64,000 nt of DNA from a virus. The stretch's first letter is position 1, and every line of letters starts with the position of its first letter. The translations under genes and the position numbers were made by a program. The stretch spans positions 15,030 to 79,029 of IMG/VR virus record IMGVR_UViG_3300045918_000146; one strand, 5' to 3'. The notes below the pieces were generated by a model. It ran no database searches and was not told where the DNA came from. It saw nothing but the letters and a program-made list of their open reading frames with translations. Shown piece after piece: positions 13,635 through 57,848 of this stretch.

Positions 13635-14273
13635 ATGTTTCTTTTTGAACTGTTTGAGACACAAACTACTAAGAATAATTTTATAAATATTACGCCAAAT
13701 ACGTTGCGTACATATACTCCTCTAATTAATCAATATAAGAAAATGTACGATATTCAAGATGATATTGACTTTGCGTATGATGCAAGCTCTCACCAGTTAA
13801 AAGCCATCACAGACAAGGCAAATCCTTTTATATCAGATTTAAAAATTAGAACATCTCCTGAATATATGAATAGAAGTCGTCTATCCGAAGATGAACCTGT
13901 TGTTTCTTTAGATCCAGCAGTAGATACATTAGTTGATCAATGGATTGCCAAGTTATCTGCACAAACACCAACACCAACAGCTCGTTCAGTGTCTAGTACT
14001 ATAGCAAGTGTATTACATCTGAAAGCTAAAATCTCATATAATTCTGCATTAACTGTTGTTGTACAAAAACTAAGAGATTTAGGAACTGATATATTAGAGG
14101 ACGAATTAAACGAAACAATAGACTACCAAAAATCTTATAGGTCAGCAATAGCACGGGCGTCTGTTGCAAAGTCGGAAGCAGAAAAGATACATTGGCGCAA
14201 ATTAGCTGATAGTTATAAGATGATAGCAACTAAACAGCAACAAAGATTAAAAGAACATTACCTGGACCGTTAG
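13635..14273 (+). CDS. Hypothetical protein with capsid-targeting-like N-terminus
   Basis: MFLFELFE, AAGGAG RBS, upstream ATAAATA. Confidence 0.6.
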   Translation: MFLFELFETQTTKNNFINITPNTLRTYTPLINQYKKMYDIQDDIDFAYDASSHQLKAITDKANPFISDLKIRTSPEYMNRSRLSEDEPVVSLDPAVDTLVDQWIAKLSAQTPTPTARSVSSTIASVLHLKAKISYNSALTVVVQKLRDLGTDILEDELNETIDYQKSYRSAIARASVAKSEAEKIHWRKLADSYKMIATKQQQRLKEHYLDR

Positions 14274-14340
14274 GATACGGTGGTGTAGGCGGCTCCGGCC
14301 TTTGAAACACGATTCGCTACCGTAAATTTCAAAAACCGAG
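14262..14340 (+). ncRNA. Candidate structured RNA element
   Basis: G+C-richer intergenic segment with several alternative helices (see findings). Confidence 0.35.
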
Positions 14341-14787: not shown

Positions 14788-15101
14788 ATACTTATTCTTG
14801 GATAAAACTGTAATACGTTGTTATCATCAACAATAATAAACTTATCTTGAATTTGTTCATTTAGATATTCAACTATGTCAGATGTTGCTTCAAACCATTC
14901 TCCATTCGACCGAACTTTCTTAAACCGTTTATGTAATTCCGATTCTAACTCAAAGCCGCCAGGAAAGTAACCAAGTAATATCAACTTCTTTGCATTACCA
15001 GTAGACAAATTACTTTTTCTTTTATTTGGTCGAACAGATACCCCTATCTTAATATATTGTCCGTCCGTCATTGCATAAACAAATGGTTTATTCATAATCA
15101 T
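14784..15101 (-). CDS. GIY-YIG-like (T5orf172/MUG113) domain protein
   Basis: VYAM..YIKIGVS..R, ESELHKRF, NGEWF. Confidence 0.75.
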   Translation of the reverse strand: MIMNKPFVYAMTDGQYIKIGVSVRPNKRKSNLSTGNAKKLILLGYFPGGFELESELHKRFKKVRSNGEWFEATSDIVEYLNEQIQDKFIIVDDNNVLQFYPRISI

Positions 15102-46290: not shown

Positions 46291-48156
46291 TTATTCTAAA
46301 TCTAACCATACCTTACGTTTATCGCTAAATCCCGTATCTTTAAGGAAACACAAATCTAAAGTTTCCCCGTCTTGATCATCTTTATATTCAAACTGTACTA
46401 AATATTGATCAATATTTTTCATGTAATTTTTAAACATAGCTGTAGTAGATGAACCCAATCCTTTCAAAAAAGCATATTCGTATTTTTCTCCTGGATGCTT
46501 ATTGCGCCATTCTTCAAACTCATGTTCTGTGAAAAACTCAAGATTTTGTTTTTTATACTGCACCGAGACTACAGGTGTAATTAACCTATATAGTTTACCG
46601 GACGATATTATTTCAGGCCATAGACGATAAAACATATTAATAATTAACCCTGCAATAGAATGCCCAAATTCGTCTGCATCAGACGCAATAACAATAGCAC
46701 CAAAGTTTAAATTATTAACATCTGCCTTCTCTCCATACTTTAGGCCAATTAACATTCTTACGTTCTCAAATTCTTCGTTTTCTTTAACTTTTGCAAAGGT
46801 AGTCGCTGATACGTTAATTGGTCTACCACGTAAAGGAAACGCTGCATGTAACTTTGGATCTCTTGCACCTAGTATAGAACTACACGCCGAGTCTCCTTCT
46901 GCAAGTAATAACATAGTTTTACTGCGATCTTTCTCTGTTGCATCATGAAACTTCTTAACTTTCTTAAGATTAATCTTGTCTGTATCTTTGTTTAGTTTCC
47001 TCATATCGGCTAATTGTACGGCATGTTGTTTAGCTTCTACCCAGTCTAATACGGATTGTATTATTGGGGATTTAATAATCTTATTGACGATACGCTCAGA
47101 TACTTCATATGTAGTACCAAATGATTTTGATTCAGTAATTAGATCTTCTTTTGTTTGCGAAGAATATCTAGGTCTAATGATAGTTGCATTAATAAACAGC
47201 ATAAAATGTTGACGAATTTGACTTGGCGTAATATCAATTTTATTCTTTTTCTTAAAATACTCACGTAATTTAAGAGTAATTTGATCTGAGATATACGATA
47301 CATGATTACCGCCTATGCTTGTTTCCGTCCCATTTACAAATGACACATGCTCGAACCCATCTGACGCATGTGAAATACCAATCTTCCAATTATCATTCTC
47401 GTCATATACGAACTCGTTAGTATACATAGAAATATAATCTTCAAATGCTTTAATTTTAATATGTGTACCATTCAAATATACTTTGAGATTAGGATTACAT
47501 CCCGCAACATCATATACACGCTTAACTAATTTGTCATAATTTCCAGTATCTAACTTAGTTAGGCCAAATTTAGAATAATCGGGGGTCCAAGTAATCTCTG
47601 TATAATGTTTATCAGACAGTTTAATTTTTGGTGTAGTCTTTTTACGTGAATTTTCTAAATGTACTTGATCAAATGAATTCTTTCCGTCTGCTGTTTTAAC
47701 ATGGAACGACGTACTAAAAATACAAGTAAGTCCTGCACCCTCCCCGTTCTGACCCGTGGTAACTGAATCTTCATCGTCGTTAAAATTAGAGCCTGCACGT
47801 AGCTCAAATATCATCTCTGGAATCCATTGATCGTGTTCTTTATGTTTCACAACATGTATTCCACCATTATCCCATATAGACATTTCACCAGTTGCTTGGT
47901 TTAATGTTACTTTAATAGTATTTAGATGTTTACCGTCTGTTGTTTTTGCGAAGTCAACTGAATTAGAAATGATTTCGTCAAACGTTTTAATTAATGCAGG
48001 ACACCAAGTAGCATCGCGCTTTGAGATTGTGTTATCTGAATTCACCAAATAAGTATTAGCTGTATGCGGGGCAATAGACCCTAGATACCTGCCTGGTCGT
48101 AATAAGCAATGTTCTATTTCGTCTAATTTTTGGAAACGTTCTTCTATAGTTTTCAT
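46291..48156 (-). CDS. Type II DNA topoisomerase, ATPase+TOPRIM subunit (gp39/60, GyrB-like)
   Basis: EHCLLRP..Y.GS, FDEIISNSVD, GQNGEG, EGDSA, PLRG, DADEFG, KGLG. Confidence 0.95.
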   Translation of the reverse strand: MKTIEERFQKLDEIEHCLLRPGRYLGSIAPHTANTYLVNSDNTISKRDATWCPALIKTFDEIISNSVDFAKTTDGKHLNTIKVTLNQATGEMSIWDNGGIHVVKHKEHDQWIPEMIFELRAGSNFNDDEDSVTTGQNGEGAGLTCIFSTSFHVKTADGKNSFDQVHLENSRKKTTPKIKLSDKHYTEITWTPDYSKFGLTKLDTGNYDKLVKRVYDVAGCNPNLKVYLNGTHIKIKAFEDYISMYTNEFVYDENDNWKIGISHASDGFEHVSFVNGTETSIGGNHVSYISDQITLKLREYFKKKNKIDITPSQIRQHFMLFINATIIRPRYSSQTKEDLITESKSFGTTYEVSERIVNKIIKSPIIQSVLDWVEAKQHAVQLADMRKLNKDTDKINLKKVKKFHDATEKDRSKTMLLLAEGDSACSSILGARDPKLHAAFPLRGRPINVSATTFAKVKENEEFENVRMLIGLKYGEKADVNNLNFGAIVIASDADEFGHSIAGLIINMFYRLWPEIISSGKLYRLITPVVSVQYKKQNLEFFTEHEFEEWRNKHPGEKYEYAFLKGLGSSTTAMFKNYMKNIDQYLVQFEYKDDQDGETLDLCFLKDTGFSDKRKVWLDLE

Positions 48157-48200
48157 TCGTCGTTAATCCTTTAATGCTAATATATATTATTTACTCGAAA

Positions 48201-48245
48201 GAGCAGAAAGCCCAAATAATCTTTAGTCCTTGGGATGAATGCGAC
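48201..48245 (+). mobile_element. Possible IS200/IS605-type end remnant
   Basis: GAAAGCCCAA..CTTTAG..TTGGGATGAATGCG hairpin pattern; no transposase. Confidence 0.3.
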
Positions 48246-48333
48246 AGGTTTTTTAATCAAATTATCTCACAATTGAATTGTTAACCATTTGAGTTGATTA
48301 TTACGGTAACCAGTAGTAATATAATACTACTTA

Positions 48334-48559
48334 GGGATAGTTACAGCAATTAAAAACCTACTCAAATGCTATAGACGGTAGATAGAGATATCGTGTAATC
48401 TACCAATAGAATAGCTATTGTTAGCCAGAAGAACTAGCGGTGTGGGTGACTCAAACCCAATAGTGTTCAGGCGAAAACTGAACTATAGCGGCAGGGATGA
48501 TGAAAGCCGCAAGAAACAATAATTAAAACATTTACCCTAACCTAACCTATCCTATCCCG
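48334..48559 (+). ncRNA. Structured RNA unit 1 of CAGCA-motif array
   Basis: GGGATAG(48334-40)/CTATCCC(48552-58) closing stem, TTACAGCAA, five internal hairpins. Confidence 0.7.
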
Positions 48560-48614
48560 CACATTATGATTTAGAAAGGCCTACTATGTTTCAATGGGTT
48601 AAAAAACTTATACC

Positions 48615-48659
48615 ATCAAAGAGATCAAAGAGATCAAAGAGATCAAAGAGATCAACGAG
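48615..48659 (+). repeat. 9-bp tandem repeat ATCAAAGAG x5 (last copy imperfect) in a disrupted ORF
   Basis: Read directly from sequence. Confidence 0.9.
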
Positions 48660-48874
48660 TTAGCGTTAGGCAAAAACGAGATACACGTAATTAAACTTAA
48701 AAGTAATAACATGCCAAACAGCACATGGCAGGAACATGCAACCGATGTTAAAAATATGTTCCAACTATTACTGTTGTCATAACAAATAATAGTTATTAGC
48801 GAAGATGTGGAATTATCAACAATTAAGAAAGATAAGTTACCAGGTAATTTACATCCAATTGGTTAATTAATGTA

Positions 48875-48903
48875 TTGACACACAGACATTATTAATGTAC
48901 TAT
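48875..48903 (+). promoter_or_regulatory. sigma70-type promoter upstream of RNA units 2-4
   Basis: TTGACA-17 nt-TACTAT with extended TG; no ORF follows for about 300 nt. Confidence 0.75.
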
Positions 48904-48934
48904 TAATACACTTAAACAACAGCTTTAAGTTTTA

Positions 48935-49011
48935 AGAGTGGTTACAGCAACAAATACATATTAGAGTCAGCAGACGATCTGACATAAATAAACGGGTCAA
49001 ACCCCACTCTG
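48935..49011 (+). ncRNA. Structured RNA unit 2
   Basis: AGAGTGG/CCACTCT stem, TTACAGCAA, hairpins GTCAG/CTGAC and GGG-TCAAA-CCC. Confidence 0.75.
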
Positions 49012-49020
49012 TTAGTATTT

Positions 49021-49124
49021 AGGATAGATTCAGCAAACAAACTACTATAGAAAAAGATAAGTACGTGATTATCTTAACTTGAGACAACGTTCCTCAAGCA
49101 AAATCAATCGGAACAGCTATCCTG
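49021..49124 (+). ncRNA. Structured RNA unit 3
   Basis: AGGATAG/CTATCCT stem, ATTCAGCAA, hairpins AAGATAA/TTATCTT and CTTGAG/CTCAAG. Confidence 0.75.
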
Positions 49125-49132
49125 CTTAATTA

Positions 49133-49196
49133 AGGTTGCATTCAGCATTTAAAAACTATTGAAAGACTGTACGGTCACAAAGCGTATAGCAACCTG
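49133..49196 (+). ncRNA. Structured RNA unit 4
   Basis: AGGTTGC/GCAACCT stem, ATTCAGCAT, small GACT/GGTC hairpin. Confidence 0.7.
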
Positions 49197-49210
49197 ATAA
49201 GGAATTTGGT

Positions 49211-49402
49211 ATGACACGAGAGAACATAACAGAATACAAATATCCACCGATTTCAGATCAAGAATTCGAAGTTTGGAAAAAAGGTTGGGACGAAAAAAAT
49301 CCTATTCCTGAACAAATACGCGATTATATGACTCGTGTAGTTTTTAAAAGAATTAATAGATCGCTAGACGATTTAGATGACTTAATTCGAAGTAGTAAAT
49401 GA
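49211..49402 (+). CDS. Hypothetical protein directly downstream of the RNA array
   Basis: AAGGA RBS, 63 aa. Confidence 0.55.
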   Translation: MTRENITEYKYPPISDQEFEVWKKGWDEKNPIPEQIRDYMTRVVFKRINRSLDDLDDLIRSSK

Positions 49403-49692
49403 GATATCAAGAAATTTTAGAAGCAACGGCTGACCAAGGAGCAATGGAGATAATTAGTCGTACTATTAACTCTTTAATAAATGCGTTAGATAATTTTGAT
49501 TTTACAGTTAAAGCGCACGGTTATGATAAAGCGGTTAGAACTATATCAACCGCTTTAAACGAGTCATATAGTTTAGATTGGTATATTAAATTTTTAACTA
49601 CTGAATCAGAAAATATAAAAGTAACTAAGTCTCTTATTAAGTTAGATACAATAAGAAATACTATTAAACAAAAGATTAAATCGGGAGTATGA
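49399..49692 (+). CDS. Hypothetical protein with capsid-targeting-like N-terminus; probable paralog of 3508..3852
   Basis: MRYQEILE; KAHGY, KIKSGV. Confidence 0.55.
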   Translation: MRYQEILEATADQGAMEIISRTINSLINALDNFDFTVKAHGYDKAVRTISTALNESYSLDWYIKFLTTESENIKVTKSLIKLDTIRNTIKQKIKSGV

Positions 49693-50351
49693 CGAAGTAT
49701 ATTATATCAATTAAAGACACCCTGTTAAAATGTTCATACAGTCCTGTAACTTTAACTGTTGGCGATTTTAAAGAAATGTACAAAGAGGTATTTTGAGAAC
49801 GAATCAGAGCCACTGAGTCAACACGGGGGAATATAGATGACAAAAACTTATAGAATTAGACAACTATGCTCATCTCTCAAAAGAGGACCAAGCATTGCGT
49901 AAACAGATTGATGCAGGAGATGACATTAATCAAAACAATTTATAAAACCTATTCCCACAGAGGGAGAAGCACTAAGATTAAAGGATTTGAAAGAAATAAA
50001 TGCAGGGTTAATTGAATTATGCAATTTCTTAAAGAACCATCTGATAAAACATGGTAAGATTTAAAGTTAATGCAAAAAGTCATGTAATTGATAGTAATAT
50101 ATGTACTCATGCATTACAATTATTAGATTTCTATGAGAAATCAGCTACAACGTTAGATAATTTAGAGAAGCATTATCTAAGAATCAAAATAGATAAGTTA
50201 CTTGTTATAACTGAAGAAAAATTTTATCCAGAGTCTCGAACATATCAGATATTATGTTATTTACGAAATAGGTTACTAATACAAACGAAGATAAACTATT
50301 AGTAGATATTAAGAAATTAGCAGGAATTATAACTCACAACGGAGAAGAGAA

Positions 50352-51764
50352 ATGACAACTTTTGCACAAGCAACCACACAAACACCAGTAATCCGCGAAA
50401 CCAATAACGGCATGAAAACATTGTTATCAAGTCTCAGTGAATGTGTTAACCTCTTTTTTGCAATTGGCGCAAGCCGCGGAAAAGATATTACTGCTATGTT
50501 CGAACGTGCATATCAAGAAGATCGTGTAACAGCATTACGTATTTTAGCTTGGAGTCGCGATGTTAGGGGAGGTGCAGGGGAGCGTAGTACTTATAGAGCA
50601 TTACTAAAATTTATCGAATCCAATCATCCGCAAGAAATTAGACAAATGGTTAACATTACTCCGGTAATTGGGCGCGCCGATGATTTGTTGGTGTTTAATA
50701 CGCCTGCTGCTAAAACTGCCGCATATGATGTTTTCAAAGACGAGATTATGATTAAGCACTCACAATTATTTGCGAAATGGGCTCCTCGAGAAAAATCGTC
50801 TAAAGGTGCTATTGCATCTGAATTACGTAAGCACATGGGCCTAGACGCAAAAGCTTATCGTAAGCTATTGTCAAGTTTAACAAAGGTTGTAGAGAATAAA
50901 ATGTGTGCTGGGCAATGGACAGACATTGAGTATTCTCATGTACCATCGGTTGCAGGGGCGAGACTTCAAAAAGCTTTTGGCAAACATGACCCAGATGGTT
51001 ATTCTTCTTTTAAAGAAAAGCTTGTAACTGGCGAAGTAAAAATCAACTCAAAAGCACTGTATCCATATGATGTATTAAAGTCTATTCGTTCAGGGGATCA
51101 AGATGTTGCTAAAGCACAATGGGATGCACTTGAGAATTTTATCGGAGATGCAAAAGTGTTGCCAGTAGTAGACGTGTCTGGTAGTATGTGTATACTAGTT
51201 GGAGGGAACAAAAATCTAACTTGTTTAGACGTATCTATATCATTGGGTCTATATTGCGCAGATAAGAATACTGGGCCATTTAAGGATTGTTTTTTGACCT
51301 TTAGTACTCGTAGTAAGATCGAGGTTTTACGCGGCGATATACTTGCTAAGTATACACAATTAATTGATGCAGACTGGGATATGACCACTAATCTAAACTC
51401 AGCATTTGAAGAAATTCTACGTGTTGGTAAGACTAATAGTGTGTTAGAAGCTGATATGCCAAAGATTGTACTGATTCTTTCAGATATGGAATTTGATAGA
51501 TGTGTCACAAATGCAGACAATACGGCGTATGACATGATTACTTCTAAGTACAATGAGTCTGGTTACGAGTTACCAAAAGTTGTTTTTTGGAACTTAAATG
51601 CTAGAAGCGAGAACGTTCCTGTAAGGTTTGATACACGAGGAACAGCGTTAGTATCTGGTTTTAGTCCTTCGATCTTAAAGTCGATACTCGGAGCAAAAGA
51701 GTTTACGCCAGCATCAATTATGTTAGATACTGTAAATGTTTCGCGTTATGAGGTAATTGTATGA
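50352..51764 (+). CDS. DUF2828-type Ro60/TROVE-like protein with C-terminal vWA domain
   Basis: RDVRGGAGER, AKWAPRE, YSHVPS, LYPYDV, MIDAS DVSGS, LSDMEFD, FWNL, VSGFSP. Confidence 0.85.
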   Translation: MTTFAQATTQTPVIRETNNGMKTLLSSLSECVNLFFAIGASRGKDITAMFERAYQEDRVTALRILAWSRDVRGGAGERSTYRALLKFIESNHPQEIRQMVNITPVIGRADDLLVFNTPAAKTAAYDVFKDEIMIKHSQLFAKWAPREKSSKGAIASELRKHMGLDAKAYRKLLSSLTKVVENKMCAGQWTDIEYSHVPSVAGARLQKAFGKHDPDGYSSFKEKLVTGEVKINSKALYPYDVLKSIRSGDQDVAKAQWDALENFIGDAKVLPVVDVSGSMCILVGGNKNLTCLDVSISLGLYCADKNTGPFKDCFLTFSTRSKIEVLRGDILAKYTQLIDADWDMTTNLNSAFEEILRVGKTNSVLEADMPKIVLILSDMEFDRCVTNADNTAYDMITSKYNESGYELPKVVFWNLNARSENVPVRFDTRGTALVSGFSPSILKSILGAKEFTPASIMLDTVNVSRYEVIV

Positions 51765-52302: not shown

Positions 52303-52875
52303 ATGAAGAAAGTACTTATGTCAGTAATCGTAGCAATCGTAGCAAGTATTAGTAGTATGGCACACGCAAGTGAATATATGGGTATTGACTTAGGAAATAG
52401 CAAAAACAAAGCTATTAACTCACAGACAACGCATTATGGTACTGTGACATACGGCCAAAGTCTAGGTCATATTGATGTAGAAGGACGTTTGGGTGTTGGA
52501 CGTACTACCGATACTTTTGTAGATAGTAACTTTGCAGATGTTCGTGGACGTGTAAACTTTGACCCTATTGTTGGATTGAATCCTTGGTTACGAGGTACAA
52601 TTGGAGAAACATTTAGCAATGGAACTAACGCTGGATATTGGGCTTTTGAACCAGGTGTTACATATAAGGTAACACCTTCACTTAATGCAGAGCTTAGTGT
52701 TCAACGTACTGAGTTGTTTAATCGTAACTGGAGTGCCGCAGACCAATCTACTTATACACTAGGTGCTGTATATTCTGTGAACGCTAAAAATAGTGTATCG
52801 CTTAGGTATCTTAAATCTGTAGATGGGACACAACCTACAGCATATGAGTTTGGATACGTCCGTAGTTTTCAATAA
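52303..52875 (+). CDS. Outer-membrane beta-barrel protein
   Basis: Signal peptide ending AHA, alternating amphipathic strands, terminal YEFGYVRSF signature. Confidence 0.8.
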   Translation: MKKVLMSVIVAIVASISSMAHASEYMGIDLGNSKNKAINSQTTHYGTVTYGQSLGHIDVEGRLGVGRTTDTFVDSNFADVRGRVNFDPIVGLNPWLRGTIGETFSNGTNAGYWAFEPGVTYKVTPSLNAELSVQRTELFNRNWSAADQSTYTLGAVYSVNAKNSVSLRYLKSVDGTQPTAYEFGYVRSFQ

Positions 52876-54180: not shown

Positions 54181-54630
54181 ATGTTAATTGAAAGACTGAA
54201 AACAGCTCAAGTATTTGCACGTAAAGCTCGTGTTACAGACGTAGCCTCCTTACTTACAACTATTATTGGCGAAGCAGAAATGGTTGGTAAGTCTGCAGGT
54301 AATCGCGCATCAACTGATGCTGAAGTTTTAACTACTTTGAAAAAGTTTGAAAAAGGGCAAGTAGAAAATCTAAAACTTTTTACTGACCGCAACGACTACG
54401 CAAAAGCACAGATAGCAAAGTCTGAACTAACTATTATTCGTAGTTTTTTACCAGCTAAGATTTCCGATGAAGAAATTGCTGCTGATATTGCAATTATTGT
54501 CGAAACCAACAATTTACCTAAAGAACAAAAGTCGATGGGCGTGGTTACTAAAGCACTTAAAACTAAATATGCAGATCAATTTGACGGCGCACAAATCTCT
54601 GCTACGTTTAAACAAATGTATCTCAGCTAA
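54181..54630 (+). CDS. GatB/YqeY domain protein
   Basis: 149-aa helical protein: ERLKT...ARKAR, ELTIIRSFLP, KSMGVV. Confidence 0.8.
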   Translation: MLIERLKTAQVFARKARVTDVASLLTTIIGEAEMVGKSAGNRASTDAEVLTTLKKFEKGQVENLKLFTDRNDYAKAQIAKSELTIIRSFLPAKISDEEIAADIAIIVETNNLPKEQKSMGVVTKALKTKYADQFDGAQISATFKQMYLS

Positions 54631-54765
54631 TGTACAGCTTGCAATCTGAATATTTTTCTATTCTAATATCTAAGTTTCAGAGTCAACGCTTAGAAGTTGG
54701 GTATAGGGTATTCAAAACATAGGGACTATGGCACACATTGCATTAACATGGAGTTAGAAAAACAG

Positions 54766-55536
54766 ATGAAATTACATATAATGTCCGATTTACACCTCGA
54801 GTTTTTTAAACATACAGAAAGTTATCCTACTATTCCTGTCAACGATGCTGATGTAATTATTTTAGCAGGAGATATACATAAAGGGAATAAAGGAGTTTAT
54901 TGGGCTCGCGATAAATGGCCAACACAGACAATTATATATGTTCCAGGAAACCACGAATATTACGGCACACAACGAGCAGAAACCTTGTCACTGCTGTATA
55001 TTGCAGGTAAACAGTGTAACGTTAATGTATTAGATAACAACGAGTTAATTTTACCAGGTGTTCGTTTTCTTGGTACTACACTATGGACAGATTTTAAATT
55101 ATATGGAGATGGTGTAACAAAACAAATGGCAATGAATGTTGGACAACGTAGTCTTAATGATTTTCGTGTAATACATGAAGGCGCACGTGGTCATTTTAGT
55201 GCAGAACATTCTATTGAGATGCACGAGAAGTCGGTTGACTGGCTAACGTCTAAGATTGACGAACCTTTTGAAGGTAAAACTGTAGTAGTTACTCATCATT
55301 TACCTAGCATGTCTTCTGTTGCTGTAAAATATAAAAACGACCCAGTAACAGCATGTTTTGCTAGTAATTTAGAACGTTTATTTGGCATACCTAATCTCTT
55401 TATACATGGACATACCCATGTTTCTTGCGACTACGTTGAGAATTGTACTCGTGTTATTTGCAATCCACGAGGGTATGAATCATACGGCGGCATTGAGAAC
55501 CCAGAATTTAACCACTCATTAGTTGTAGAACTATAG
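54766..55536 (+). CDS. Metallophosphoesterase
   Basis: SDLHLE, LAGDI, PGNHEYY, GTTLWTDF, THHLP, HGHTH, CNPRGY. Confidence 0.9.
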   Translation: MKLHIMSDLHLEFFKHTESYPTIPVNDADVIILAGDIHKGNKGVYWARDKWPTQTIIYVPGNHEYYGTQRAETLSLLYIAGKQCNVNVLDNNELILPGVRFLGTTLWTDFKLYGDGVTKQMAMNVGQRSLNDFRVIHEGARGHFSAEHSIEMHEKSVDWLTSKIDEPFEGKTVVVTHHLPSMSSVAVKYKNDPVTACFASNLERLFGIPNLFIHGHTHVSCDYVENCTRVICNPRGYESYGGIENPEFNHSLVVEL

Positions 55537-55657
55537 TGCAAGCTATCACTAGACGTGATAGATACGAAATTTACATTTCTCCGCAAGATGAGAAATGGTA
55601 CTCGTGTGGTGGAATTTTCTCTTTCAACCATGAAGATATAGTACTAGTCCTATTAAG

Positions 55658-56031
55658 GTGATCATAATGCCTATGATATTAACTCCGCGACAACGTAATA
55701 AACAGCCGTTAGCAGAAGTACAATGGGTGAAAGATAACCTTATATGTACAGAAGTATTACGGAACAAATATGACGAAACACATTGGATATGGTGGATACC
55801 CGAAGAAGAGGATGCTGTAATTTTCGCATTGAGATGGTCATAGTGTCCAAACAATTATTCTTTGAGGCAGGATGGATATATTATGTTGATATTAGTCCAA
55901 AGTATGCTTCACACGAACAAGCTGTTACTTGGGCAAAAGATAACTTCAGTAAGAATGTAACTTGGGTTGGAACTGAATCTTGGTTTAAGTATGAGCAAGA
56001 TGCGATGTTTTTCGCTCTAAAATGGAAATAA
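55658..56031 (+). CDS. Two tandem small paralogs (55658-55843, 55834-56031)
   Basis: End in EDAVIFALRW and QDAMFFALKW. Confidence 0.6.
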
Positions 56032-56071
56032 TACTTGACTTTTTCTTTAAAAGCTGTATAATAGCTTTATT
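56032..56071 (+). repeat. 40-bp early-promoter module, identical copy at 57878-57917
   Basis: TACTTGACTTTTTCTTTAAAAGCTGTATAATAGCTTTATT at both sites. Confidence 0.9.
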
Positions 56072-56093
56072 AAATAACAAAACGGAGTTGAAA

Positions 56094-56276
56094 ATGAACG
56101 CAGAAATGAAAGCAAAACTGGAAAAGCTGGCGGCGCGCGATTGCTGGATTGACGATGACGATTTCATGGTGGACGACTACGCCGGAGGAAACATAGACGA
56201 TGCGTACTACGGCGGAAATGCAGATGGAGAGGCAGGTTTAGCACGGGCGTTACTCGCTGAATTTGGTGGGGCATAA
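56094..56276 (+). CDS. Small G+C-richer hypothetical protein ending in an attC-like site
   Basis: GGAG RBS, MNAEMKAKLEKLA; stop TAA lies in GCATAAC. Confidence 0.65.
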   Translation: MNAEMKAKLEKLAARDCWIDDDDFMVDDYAGGNIDDAYYGGNADGEAGLARALLAEFGGA

Positions 56277-56393
56277 CGTAGAGTTGAGCGGCGCGCCGAC
56301 AGGAACACTTGATAAAGGAAATGCACCATGAATACCAACACAGCTAAAAACGAAGAGAATATCGGCGTGTCCGACTCGAACGGCGGGTTAGAC
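56271..56393 (+). mobile_element. Integron attC-like recombination site 1
   Basis: GCATAAC-GTAGA-GTTGAGCGGCGCGCCGA...TCGGCGTGTCCGACTCGAAC-GGCGG-GTTAGAC. Confidence 0.75.
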
Positions 56394-56567
56394 GCCGACT
56401 CTAAGCGTATGCTGGAATTGCTGGGTAGCATATTTTATTGCGGAAGCTTTGTAGCAGAGACACACAACGAGCGTGAACTGGAAATGCTGATGCGGAAACA
56501 CGGCTATTTCATCGAGACATCCGACCAGTTTGATAACTACTGCGAGAAAGTACATATAGGCGGCTAA
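56328..56567 (+). CDS. Cassette-like small hypothetical protein
   Basis: Starts inside attC1, stops in GGCTAAC of attC2. Confidence 0.6.
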   Translation: MNTNTAKNEENIGVSDSNGGLDADSKRMLELLGSIFYCGSFVAETHNERELEMLMRKHGYFIETSDQFDNYCEKVHIGG

Positions 56568-56608
56568 CGTAGAGTTGAGCGGCACGCTTTAGCGTGACCG
56601 AGTTGAAC
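56562..56608 (+). mobile_element. attC-like site 2, right end truncated
   Basis: GGCTAAC-GTAGA-GTTGAGCGG-CACGCT-TT-AGCGTG-ACCGAGTTGAAC, no GTTRRRY. Confidence 0.65.
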
Positions 56609-56833
56609 GGGATAAAAGTCGTGAAAGAAGATGCATTATCTTTTCACTACGGAAACAATGCTAAACTAGTTCAGTTATTGCGAGAACAACATCGTAAAGA
56701 CGGCGAAGATCCTGCTACCTTTCCACAATTTCTAGAGGAAAATGGAGTAAAGATGGTCGGACCGTTGATAGTAATAGATGACAAGTTCGATCTAATGGCT
56801 CGTTTAAAATTCAGTAATACAGGGAGAAATTAA
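56594..56833 (+). CDS. Hypothetical protein
   Basis: GTG start inside attC2; true start uncertain. Confidence 0.45.
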   Translation: MTELNGIKVVKEDALSFHYGNNAKLVQLLREQHRKDGEDPATFPQFLEENGVKMVGPLIVIDDKFDLMARLKFSNTGRN

Positions 56834-56834
56834 T

Positions 56835-57848
56835 ATGAGGAAAATGGCTTCAATACAAAAGATTATAGATATTCAACCAATCGACGGTGCCGACTTGATT
56901 CAAGTTGCTACAATTAATGGTTGGAAAGTTGTTGTTAAAAAAGACGAGTTTAAAATTGGCGACTTAGTAACATACTTTGAAATTGATTCGTGGATTCCAA
57001 CTGCCTTAGCTCCTTTCTTATCTAAAGGAAAAGAACCGCGCGAATATATCAGCATTAAAGGCGAAAGACTGAGAACCGTACGTTTGAAAGGGCAATTATC
57101 TCAGGGTCTAATTCTACCGTTATCAATTGTTAGCGGAGGTGATGAAATAGGCTCTTTTAAAGAAGACGACGATGTATCTGAGCTAGTAGGTGTTGTTAAG
57201 TATGACCCGCCAGTAGCAGCTAACTTAGCAGGAGTTGCAAGAGGTAACTTTCCTATACAAGTACCTAAAACCGACGAAATTCGTGTCCAAAACTTAACAA
57301 AAGAATGGGATGAATTACGTACATATACTTATGAAGTTACAGAAAAAATCGAAGGCCAAAGCCTATCATTAATTATGGTTGATGGAGAATTTCATGTCTG
57401 CTCTAGGAATCTTAGTCTAAAATGCACTGAGGATAATCCATTATGGGGGATCGCAAGACGTTATAACGTTGAGGATAATATGCGTACACATAATCTAACT
57501 AATTTTGCAATACAGGGAGAATTGTACGGGGAGTCTGTTCAAGGTAACCACTATTCCATTAAAGGTACTGACTTTATGGTTTATTCAATGTACGATGTAA
57601 CAAAAGGCGAATATGTATCTCCAGAGGCTCGTCTCAATATATGTGAAATGTTAGGATTAAAGCATGTACCTATTATTGCAAACACATATACTCCGGACAA
57701 CATGTCCATTGATAACATTCTTGCTATAGCTAATGGTAAATCGTTAGTTAATCTAGAGAAACTTCGTGAAGGTATAGTATTTAAGCGTATAAATGGTCAA
57801 GAACACTGGAAAGCTGTATCTAACGAGTACTTGCTTAAACATGGTTGA
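56835..57848 (+). CDS. RNA ligase, DRB0094/Rnl5 family
   Basis: N-terminal OB domain (MRKMASIQ..I.GAD.I, YFEIDS, SQGL), TEKIEG, QGELYG, EGIVFK, KAVS. Confidence 0.9.
   Translation: MRKMASIQKIIDIQPIDGADLIQVATINGWKVVVKKDEFKIGDLVTYFEIDSWIPTALAPFLSKGKEPREYISIKGERLRTVRLKGQLSQGLILPLSIVSGGDEIGSFKEDDDVSELVGVVKYDPPVAANLAGVARGNFPIQVPKTDEIRVQNLTKEWDELRTYTYEVTEKIEGQSLSLIMVDGEFHVCSRNLSLKCTEDNPLWGIARRYNVEDNMRTHNLTNFAIQGELYGESVQGNHYSIKGTDFMVYSMYDVTKGEYVSPEARLNICEMLGLKHVPIIANTYTPDNMSIDNILAIANGKSLVNLEKLREGIVFKRINGQEHWKAVSNEYLLKHG

Follow-up and report, generated by a model that had tools for sequence, protein, structure and literature searches.

What is the role of four short units that share their ends and differ in their interiors, set one after another in a region of phage DNA with no open reading frame (ORF) of 40 amino acids or more? 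The question is raised by a 64,000-nucleotide (nt) stretch of viral DNA, hereafter the window (positions 15,030 to 79,029 of the IMG/VR virus record IMGVR_UViG_3300045918_000146), in which a 1-kb intergenic region separates the divergent, minus-strand gene for the topoisomerase II large subunit (46291-48156) from a run of plus-strand ORFs; the absence of ORFs applies to 48157-49210. Each unit closes on itself through a perfect helix, carries the motif CAGCA at a fixed place beside that helix, and encloses its own set of hairpins. Our reading, built from comparison of sequences and of a protein fold, is that the four units are likely the partner RNAs of a Ro60-like protein encoded by the same phage, and in that sense Y-RNA-like. 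The stretch is present in three DNA sequencing runs from wetland and pond metagenomes and belongs to an uncultured phage; contigs from those runs are identical to the window over partial cover, with no micro-variation readable in the arms of the units.

The four units follow a common plan: the two arms of each pair into a perfect 7-bp terminal helix, the 5′ arm leads through a 3-nt spacer to CAGCA followed by A or T and then to a linker without G, and variable hairpins separate this part from the complementary 3′ arm, behind which stands an unpaired G. We refer to the helix with its motif and its terminal G as the handle, and to the enclosed hairpins as the cargo. The motif WTWCAGCA(A/T), where W is A or T, begins immediately 3′ of each 5′ arm and reads TTACAGCAA in units 1 and 2, ATTCAGCAA in unit 3 and ATTCAGCAT in unit 4; the 13-18 nt on the 3′ side of CAGCA(A/T) hold no G in any of the four, and the second pair of all four perfect helices is G2-C. 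The original prediction had placed four perfectly Watson-Crick-paired arms, each 3′ arm followed by a G, at arm-to-arm lengths of 225, 76, 103 and 63 nt, and both the positions and the lengths are borne out (Table 1). Units 2, 3 and 4 are separated by gaps of 9 and 8 nt, while unit 1 stands some 375 nt upstream of unit 2, an interval that contains a small ORF as well as the promoter-like site of units 2-4. Both strands, in the window and in the entire 79-kb contig, were scanned for further units, defined by a 7-mer 3 nt ahead of CAGCA and by its complement no more than 350 nt away with a G behind it; none was found, even at a tolerance of one mismatch. Where other 7-mer pairs occur near CAGCA, the arms consist of A and T only and stand at other offsets, or the G is missing.

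Is so compact a design more than coincidence? A census of 80 IMG/VR viral loci encoding a DUF2828 protein (the Pfam family of the Ro60-like protein) at 47-63% identity provides the answer. The gene strand of these loci has 1767 CAGCA sites, and at 225 of them a 7-mer at offset 3 finds its perfect complement with a G behind it, as compared with 1-18 sites when the same test is made at nine other offsets and 2-17 on the opposite strand, an enrichment of about 20-fold at the exact offset and strand. Because it involves no selection on pairing, this test is the unbiased one, and the handle design is not due to chance. At least one unit is present in 77 of the 80 loci and lies within 500 nt of the DUF2828 gene in 75, with a median unit-gene gap of 52 nt upstream; the loci hold 2.7 units on average and seven at most, with differing cargoes. 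Units are also found downstream of the gene, in 14 of the IMG/VR loci and in the phages LeBron and radambza, and some stand kilobases away between tRNA genes. Their orientation follows that of the gene (291 matches on the same strand vs 25). The consensus of 215 distinct units comprises a T-rich leader (T at -1 in 70%), the arm A1 G2 G3 W4 T5 N6 N7, then N T W CAGCAA, about 10 nt with no more than 5% G, the cargo, an A-rich stretch, the arm N N A W C C T, the G, and TT; the helix has a weak first pair, G2-C as its second and free variation at pairs 6-7.

The same design recurs well beyond these loci, beside the DUF2828 gene of Ralstonia phage RSP15, Cronobacter phage S13, a Vibrio T4-like phage, the Felix O1-like phage radambza, mycobacteriophage LeBron and Listeria phage LMSP-25, whose proteins are 31-47% identical to that of the window. 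In RSP15 the gene lies inside a tRNA cluster, and six units occupy unannotated gaps with spacers of 6-13 nt to the adjoining tRNAs or units. Radambza (protein identity 39%) has four units with AGACCNN stems among the tRNAs just after the gene, LeBron (35%) has three with UGNNCNN stems in the 360-nt gap after gp53, and LMSP-25 (31%) has three just before the gene. The helix length, the G2-C pair, the 3-nt spacer, CAGCAA and the 3′ G are constant in all of these distant phages, and in every phage lineage sampled the handle RNAs adjoin a DUF2828 gene. A further 73 topoisomerase-anchored loci (880 kb) were collected with an alignment query, a single-protein topoisomerase search for related loci having found nothing; this sample, which leaves the closest topoisomerase relatives (71% identity) outside, proved to lack DUF2828 homologues as well as units of the main AGG..CCT stem type and so served as a control. 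Seven of the control loci, including L025-L028, L030 and L044, do hold a conserved 146-nt element of the form ATCGACA-TAT-CAGCAA...TGTCGAT-G (e.g., L026:4368-4223, minus strand), set, like the window array, on the upstream side of the topoisomerase gene in divergent orientation, with U-A rather than G-C as pair 2 and with no DUF2828 homologue within the fetched DNA. This element is either a handle RNA whose protein gene lies further off or a look-alike.

Whether the window units belong to this family can be judged with a covariance model, R1, that was built from 71 short units of other phages, contains no window sequence and was given the 7-bp helix as its sole structure. Run over the 64-kb window on both strands with filters off, R1 places unit 2 (36.0 bits, expectation value E 7e-6), unit 4 (33.6 bits, E 2.5e-5) and unit 3 (30.0 bits, E 1.6e-4) at the top, followed by the 5′ part of unit 1 (18.1 bits, E 0.095), and finds nothing beyond the four units below E 1; unit 1 is matched only in its 5′ part because its cargo of about 200 nt is so long. 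The window units are almost certainly true members of the handle RNA family. Since R1 also finds units that the strict scan misses, the pattern counts given above understate the size of the family; two such additional units are L076:2326-2390 (43.1 bits) and L075:1666-1738 (30.7 bits).

The helix itself shows covariation. In the 71-unit alignment, both-sided changes occur at six of the seven stem pairs, G2-C being invariant, and pairing holds in 98.8% of cells vs 32-44% with the partner slid, figures that are descriptive only, as the rows had been picked for pairing. Closer to the window, the multi-hairpin cargo of unit 1 (48350-48550) is a domain conserved in the two nearest relatives, with homologues at L078:8191-8401 and L077:8602-8791, and the comparison yields a compensatory A-U to G-C change at stem pair 1; its internal stems covary as well (GUUCAG/CUGAAC vs GCGUAG/CCACGC, and GCGGC/GCCGC vs GCAGC/GCUGC), and it matches no Rfam family. 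Unit 3 is partly homologous to L078:9822-9933, whose arms AGAATAG/CTATTCT represent a compensatory change at pair 3. That the arms differ between copies and stay complementary points to selection on pairing and not on a repeat sequence. The expectation of a constant handle with freely varying cargo thus holds up, the handle being kept with covariation across distant phages.

What, then, does the neighbouring gene encode? The window's DUF2828 gene starts 1156 nt after unit 4, on the same strand. An AlphaFold2 model of the protein, built from 26 homologues (predicted local distance difference test score, pLDDT, 83; predicted template modelling score, pTM, 0.83), was compared with known structures by Foldseek, whose best matches are all Ro60 (1yvr, 2nvo, 9kop and 9l5y; E about 5e-8 to 1e-6). 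An alignment with VIA-align to 1yvp_A gives Z 21.0 at a root-mean-square deviation of 3.9 Å over 406 residues and extends over the helical ring as well as the vWA domain; the best unrelated entries align with the vWA domain alone, at Z of about 10. The MIDAS (metal-ion-dependent adhesion site) motif DxSxS (D274, S276 and S278) is invariant across the 26 homologues, and the model displays the architecture of Ro60, a ring of HEAT-like repeats closed by a vWA domain with its MIDAS. The DUF2828/DUF7788 protein is therefore predicted to have the full-length Ro60 fold. Genes of the DUF2828 type are known from 711 deposited phage genomes, which include those of Felix O1-like coliphages, of phages that infect Listeria, Staphylococcus, Enterococcus and Campylobacter, and of mycobacteriophages.

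Ro60, or Rsr, which combines TROVE and vWA domains, forms with its Y RNAs the classic RNA-surveillance particle, known in animals, some bacteria and a few phages. In bacterial and phage YrlA, the paired ends form a stem bearing the Ro60 site GNCGAAN0-1G, the RNA holds a tRNA-like module, and its gene is a same-strand neighbour of the Ro60 gene (Chen et al., 2014, PMC4201824); Thermus phage phiLo has a Ro60 with Yrl1 and Yrl2, which were found through their CGAA motif (PMC12135203). The handle RNAs resemble Y RNAs, above all the YrlA/YrlB of bacteria and mycobacteriophages (RF02553), at several levels. In both, the 5′ and 3′ ends come together in a terminal helix, a conserved motif adjoins it, and the module further in is variable; the handle RNA genes adjoin a same-strand gene for a ring protein with HEAT repeats and a vWA domain with an intact MIDAS, a likeness of fold only; each genome has several differing RNAs; and in relatives the module takes the form of a tRNA mimic that keeps to the permuted order of YrlA, namely T arm, closed acceptor and D arm. 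They differ in that the handle has CAGCAA 3 nt after a 7-bp helix plus an unpaired 3′ G, not a bulged helix with GNCGAAN0-1G/CGAA, and that the copy number is higher, up to seven per locus. Moreover, the DUF2828/DUF7788 protein lacks a TROVE sequence match, and the four window units lack any tRNA-like module.

The two RNA designs meet in mycobacteriophage LeBron. The T arm, closed acceptor hairpin and D arm of its unit 2 are what the YrlA model recognizes, with 39.8 bits for a gathering score of 69, while the true terminal helix of the unit, beyond the part that this model can pair, is the handle, with the arms UGGACUC/GAGUCCA and the motif UAG-CAGCAA; LeBron unit 2 is a bridge between handle RNAs and Y RNAs. 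RSP15 unit 5 is arranged similarly, running from a T arm and the acceptor 3′ strand through GCCA and a linker to the acceptor 5′ strand and a D arm. We had considered it a permuted-tRNA gene, a notion dropped in favour of a YrlA-type closed tRNA mimic after the YrlA match of LeBron unit 2. Searches of Rfam at E up to 1 over the loci of four relatives name no family for the units, the LeBron match to YrlA being below threshold and through cargo, and find no YrlA in the RSP15, radambza and LMSP-25 loci.

The window array itself matches nothing in Rfam 15, either at the gathering threshold or at E up to 10, in agreement with the original prediction, in which the units could be assigned to no named family; the comparison with Y RNA and YrlA proposed there yields no YrlA match in 48000-49500 at E up to 10, and a Ro60-fold gene nearby. 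A search of the array region against 50,697 phage records with blastn also gives no match. Nor are the units tRNAs or a clustered regularly interspaced short palindromic repeat (CRISPR) array, as had likewise been proposed. ARAGORN reports no tRNA genes in the window or the whole contig, with only overlapping noise at relaxed or mitochondrial settings, and Rfam finds no tRNA at E up to 10. There are no near-identical direct repeats of 25-40 nt as in CRISPR arrays, the shared part amounting to about 9 nt besides arms that differ from unit to unit, and the units range from 64 to 226 nt in length, which excludes this class.

The likeness to tRNA lies in the ends. The 7-bp terminal helix and one unpaired base recall an acceptor stem and discriminator, T is the commonest base at -1, and adjoining tRNAs or units are 6-13 nt away; unlike tRNAs, the window units are 64-226 nt long and have no cloverleaf, anticodon arm or T loop. 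Of 609 phage tRNAs from the same loci, 14 share the end signature of the handle (A/U first pair, G2-C71 and G73), including nine tRNA-Gln and two tRNA-Trp, and the signature could be a mimic of tRNA-Gln/Trp acceptor ends or simply a requirement of the binding protein. T4 rnaC and rnaD (species 1 and 2) are comparable as small stable RNAs that lie among phage tRNA genes and are released from the same transcripts, and rnaC ends in a T arm and an acceptor-like strand. We nevertheless rejected them as members: they have no handle, and R1 has no match at E up to 0.1 in the 5 kb of T4 DNA that contain rnaC, rnaD and eight tRNA genes.

Resemblance to parts of tRNA is also frequent in the cargo of the wider family. 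A T-arm-like hairpin occurs in 30 of 215 units (0.25 in shuffles), and a 5-bp stem with a 7-nt loop of anticodon-loop shape in 51 (7 in shuffles), at least 17 of which carry a T-loop sequence and not an anticodon; short units often display loops such as CUUUUAA, CUUGUAA and CUGUUAA. Since the window, unlike most relatives, has neither a tRNA cluster nor tRNA-like cargo, the handle and the protein are the conserved core, and tRNA mimicry is a common but optional addition. As an observation apart, the cargo hairpins of units 2-4, at 48966-48985, 49054-49075, 49078-49098 and 49166-49188, all have 8-9-nt loops with ACG (CAGACGAU, GUACGUGA, ACAACGUUC and, beside UGUACG, GUCACAAAG). Four such loops in 173 nt are about twice the expectation from a rough base-composition estimate and may be due to chance, so that we make no claim for them as a signal.

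Table 1. Positions of the handle RNA units and of the features around them (window numbering)
Feature	Position	Strand	Description
Candidate promoter of unit 1	48294..48325	+	weaker; TTGATT (48294-99), 17 nt, TAATAT (48317-22); overlapping TATAAT
Handle RNA unit 1	48334..48559	+	226 nt including the 3′ G; GGGATAG/TTA CAGCAA/G-free linker/multi-hairpin cargo of ~200 nt/CTATCCC/G
Unit 1 arms	48334-40, 48552-58	+	GGGATAG, CTATCCC
Sigma-70-like promoter	48875..48903	+	TTGACA-17-TACTAT; consensus match 10/12; best plus-strand promoter-like site in the region
Handle RNA unit 2	48935..49011	+	77 nt; AGAGTGG/TTA CAGCAA/.../CCACTCT/G
Unit 2 arms	48935-41, 49004-10	+	AGAGTGG, CCACTCT
Handle RNA unit 3	49021..49124	+	104 nt; AGGATAG/ATT CAGCAA/two hairpins/CTATCCT/G
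Unit 3 arms	49021-27, 49117-23	+	AGGATAG, CTATCCT
Handle RNA unit 4	49133..49196	+	64 nt; AGGTTGC/ATT CAGCAT/.../GCAACCT/G
Unit 4 arms	49133-39, 49189-95	+	AGGTTGC, GCAACCT
Four small ORFs	49211..50302	+	63, 97, 49 and 83 amino acids; between the array and the Ro60-like gene; no terminator-like site
Ro60-like ring protein	50352..51764	+	470 amino acids; presumed binding partner; Pfam DUF2828 + DUF7788; phrog_850 'RNA-binding protein'
YqeY-like protein	54181-54630	+	context
Calcineurin-like phosphoesterase	54697-55536	+	context
RNA ligase	56835-57848	+	context

The TTGACA-17-TACTAT site that had been claimed as a promoter ahead of units 2-4 is found, and its predicted start, by consensus match alone, would lie about 25 nt before unit 2. 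The weaker TTGATT/TAATAT pair before unit 1 is likewise present as described; it scores under the threshold of the promoter scan and is overlapped by a perfect TATAAT at 48320-25, and either of these -10 boxes would start transcription at the 5′ arm of unit 1 or a few nt before it. The four small ORFs that follow the array match no known families, and units 2-4 are probably the leader of a single operon that holds these ORFs and the Ro60-like gene.

How might these pieces work together? A shared handle that adjoins a Ro60-like gene in very different phages suggests that the units are most likely the partner RNAs of that protein. They would be transcribed from their own promoters along with their neighbours, with units 2-4 leading the Ro60-like operon, and then excised by host tRNA-processing enzymes, RNase P making the 5′ cut, at the start of the acceptor-like helix, and trimming bringing the 3′ end back to the discriminator-like G; such tRNA-like excision is suggested by the 7-bp acceptor-like helix and its G, by the T at -1 and by the 8-9-nt spacers between units 2-4. 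The Ro60-like ring would bind the helix and CAGCAA, by analogy with the binding of Y RNA terminal stems by Ro60, and the cargo would decide what the particle meets, tethering it or presenting it to other factors. Given that many relatives carry parts of tRNA as cargo, tRNA-directed enzymes or nucleases are candidate targets, and in this phage non-tRNA hairpins would fill the same place. Experimental evidence is indirect and comes from one preprint, which reports that the Ro60-like gp130 of coliphage Bas63, encoded directly upstream of tRNA genes, counters the ppl defence, and whose authors guess that some Bas63 'tRNAs' may be Y RNAs (10.1101/2024.10.10.617714); the gene layout of radambza fits this description. 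A counter-defence or tRNA-directed role of the particles is much less certain. Going further, one may imagine the handle as a universal adaptor with which the ring carries exchangeable RNA cargoes, whether tRNA arms, look-alikes of anticodon loops, entire tRNA mimics or, in this phage, non-tRNA hairpins, as decoys or traps for host defence nucleases and other RNA-directed enzymes; each phage lineage would swap its cargo to fit the weapons of its host, and the whole would amount to a programmable RNA counter-defence rack. We offer this view tentatively and consider it doubtful on balance. A bolder variant still is that the acceptor-like end, with its weak first pair, G2-C71 and G73 as in tRNA-Gln and tRNA-Trp, might be CCA-tailed or even charged.

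Several observations weigh against a Y-RNA-like partnership. The GNCGAAN0-1G motif through which known Y RNAs bind Ro60 is absent from the handle, and the sole CGAA of the window units, in a hairpin loop of unit 1 (GGCGAAAAC), is lost in the L078 homologue (GGCGACAAC). Pfam assigns the protein to DUF2828 and DUF7788 only, with no TROVE/Ro60 match, and no Ro60 chain is retrieved from the PDB chain sequences by phmmer with the single protein or by a 26-sequence profile; for want of such a match, the homology to Ro60 is argued from the fold. The RNA-protein association is a genomic one, the family being known here from its genes alone, and a cis-regulatory leader, or dependence of both on a third factor, would account for such linkage as well. 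In the window, moreover, the nearest unit is 1156 nt from the gene, as opposed to about 50 nt in the family (median 52). None of the four window cargoes contains a T-arm-like or an anticodon-loop-shaped hairpin, and tRNA genes are lacking on the contig, as they are in its two nearest relatives, so that the tRNA-related part of the model rests on other members of the family. Finally, in regarding gp130 of Bas63 as an orthologue we argue by analogy from the gene layout of a Felix O1-like phage, radambza, alone.

Could the units do without the Ro60-like protein? They might be RNAs of tRNA clusters that work on their own, with the terminal helix merely an RNase P processing signal, and serve as decoys for host tRNA-cleaving defence nucleases or as substrates or guides for phage RNA-repair enzymes. 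The acceptor-like helix, the discriminator-like G and the T at -1 would all be expected in that case, as would the enrichment of tRNA-part cargo in relatives and the presence nearby of genes for an RNA ligase, a phosphoesterase and a YqeY-like protein, or of an RtcB gene in Listeria phage LMSP-25. However, a processing signal alone would leave unexplained why CAGCAA is invariant at a fixed distance of 3 nt, why in six widely differing groups of phages the units keep almost without exception to the side of a Ro60-like gene, and why the 880 kb of related phage DNA without that gene hold none of the main stem type; we regard this explanation as unlikely. The units might instead be cis-acting elements in the mRNA leader of the Ro60-like operon, such as autoregulatory sites or attenuators, and not free-standing RNAs at all. 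Their typical place a median of 52 nt upstream on the strand of the gene has just the look of a leader, and in the window units 2-4 follow a promoter-like site and precede the first ORF of the operon, no terminator-like site being present. A leader should not, however, turn up downstream of its gene, as in LeBron, radambza and the 14 IMG/VR loci, or kilobases away between tRNA genes with tRNA-like spacers, nor would it be expected in up to seven copies per locus with differing cargoes, one member of the family holding a complete YrlA-type tRNA-like module. Unit 1, with its own candidate promoter and with a small ORF and a promoter-like site between it and unit 2 about 375 nt on, fits such a role poorly too, which leaves a leader function quite unlikely.

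A third line of explanation places the units at the level of DNA, as miniature mobile elements with 7-bp terminal inverted repeats, as recombination sites or as decayed tRNA pseudogenes, in keeping with their multiple copies, short inverted ends, frequent residence in tRNA clusters and, in some, fragments of tRNA. DNA elements of this kind would not be expected to follow the strand of a neighbouring gene (291 vs 25), to have strand-specific features such as the G-free linker and the T-rich leader, or to differ in their arms among the copies of one genome and always remain complementary; the family is, furthermore, kept across Gram-positive, Gram-negative and actinobacterial phages while its cargo turns over, and the window units hold no tRNA-like part. 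We consider this highly improbable. None of the rivals accounts at once for a fixed CAGCAA, arms that vary freely and a place beside the same gene in unrelated phage groups.

Other features of these loci deserve mention in their own right. The small ORF between unit 1 and the promoter of units 2-4 (48586-48663, plus strand) encodes 25 amino acids, MFQWVKKLIPSKRSKRSKRSKRSTS, downstream of an AGAAAGG ribosome-binding site and is made of four tandem AAGAGATCA copies; within this repeat, contigs of other runs have small insertions, and assemblies break there. The YqeY-like, phosphoesterase and RNA ligase genes (54181-57848, plus strand) form a gene set of RNA-repair type on a contig that has no tRNA genes, at 2.4-6 kb from the Ro60-like gene on its downstream side, and a 190-amino-acid ORF at 52303-52875 (plus strand) has a sub-threshold match to an outer-membrane beta-barrel (PF13505, 25.7 bits vs a cut-off of 28.7) that is unusual in a phage. 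The contig also encodes T4-type topoisomerase subunits, thymidylate synthase and similar genes. In Listeria phage LMSP-25, about 640 nt separate the three handle units and the DUF2828 gene from a near-threshold match to ROOL RNA upstream of them (L159:1470-2021; 88.5 bits against a gathering score of 99.1), and an RtcB-type 'tRNA-splicing ligase' gene stands 1.3 kb downstream of the DUF2828 gene. RSP15 has a 'tRNA amidotransferase' of the phrog_1460 type beside its tRNA cluster. Directly after the DUF2828 gene of Cronobacter phage S13 (L075:13896-14289), a 121-nt 'tRNA-Ser' and a 113-nt 'tRNA-OTHER' are annotated, followed by a 135-nt handle unit at 14154-14289; these over-long 'tRNAs' may be mis-called tRNA-like cargo.

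What does the array add to the present picture of Ro60 and its RNAs? For bacteria and a few phages, the literature describes Ro60 together with Y RNAs of the CGAA type, and 'Ro-like' or DUF2828 genes have been noted in phage genomes. No description of the handle RNA family is found in Rfam 15 or in the searchable literature, the supplementary tables of Chen et al. (2014) aside. What the window and its relatives most likely present is a particle of the Ro60/Y-RNA type with a second, sequence-unrelated RNA handle and a divergent protein of the Ro60 fold, and the window adds that this system exists without a tRNA cluster or tRNA-like cargo. If the pairing of RNA and protein is true, hundreds of 'hypothetical' intergenic stretches in well-studied phages would become RNA genes, the function of DUF2828 would become testable in laboratory phage-host pairs, and the modular cargo would offer a direct read-out of the target of each phage's particle.

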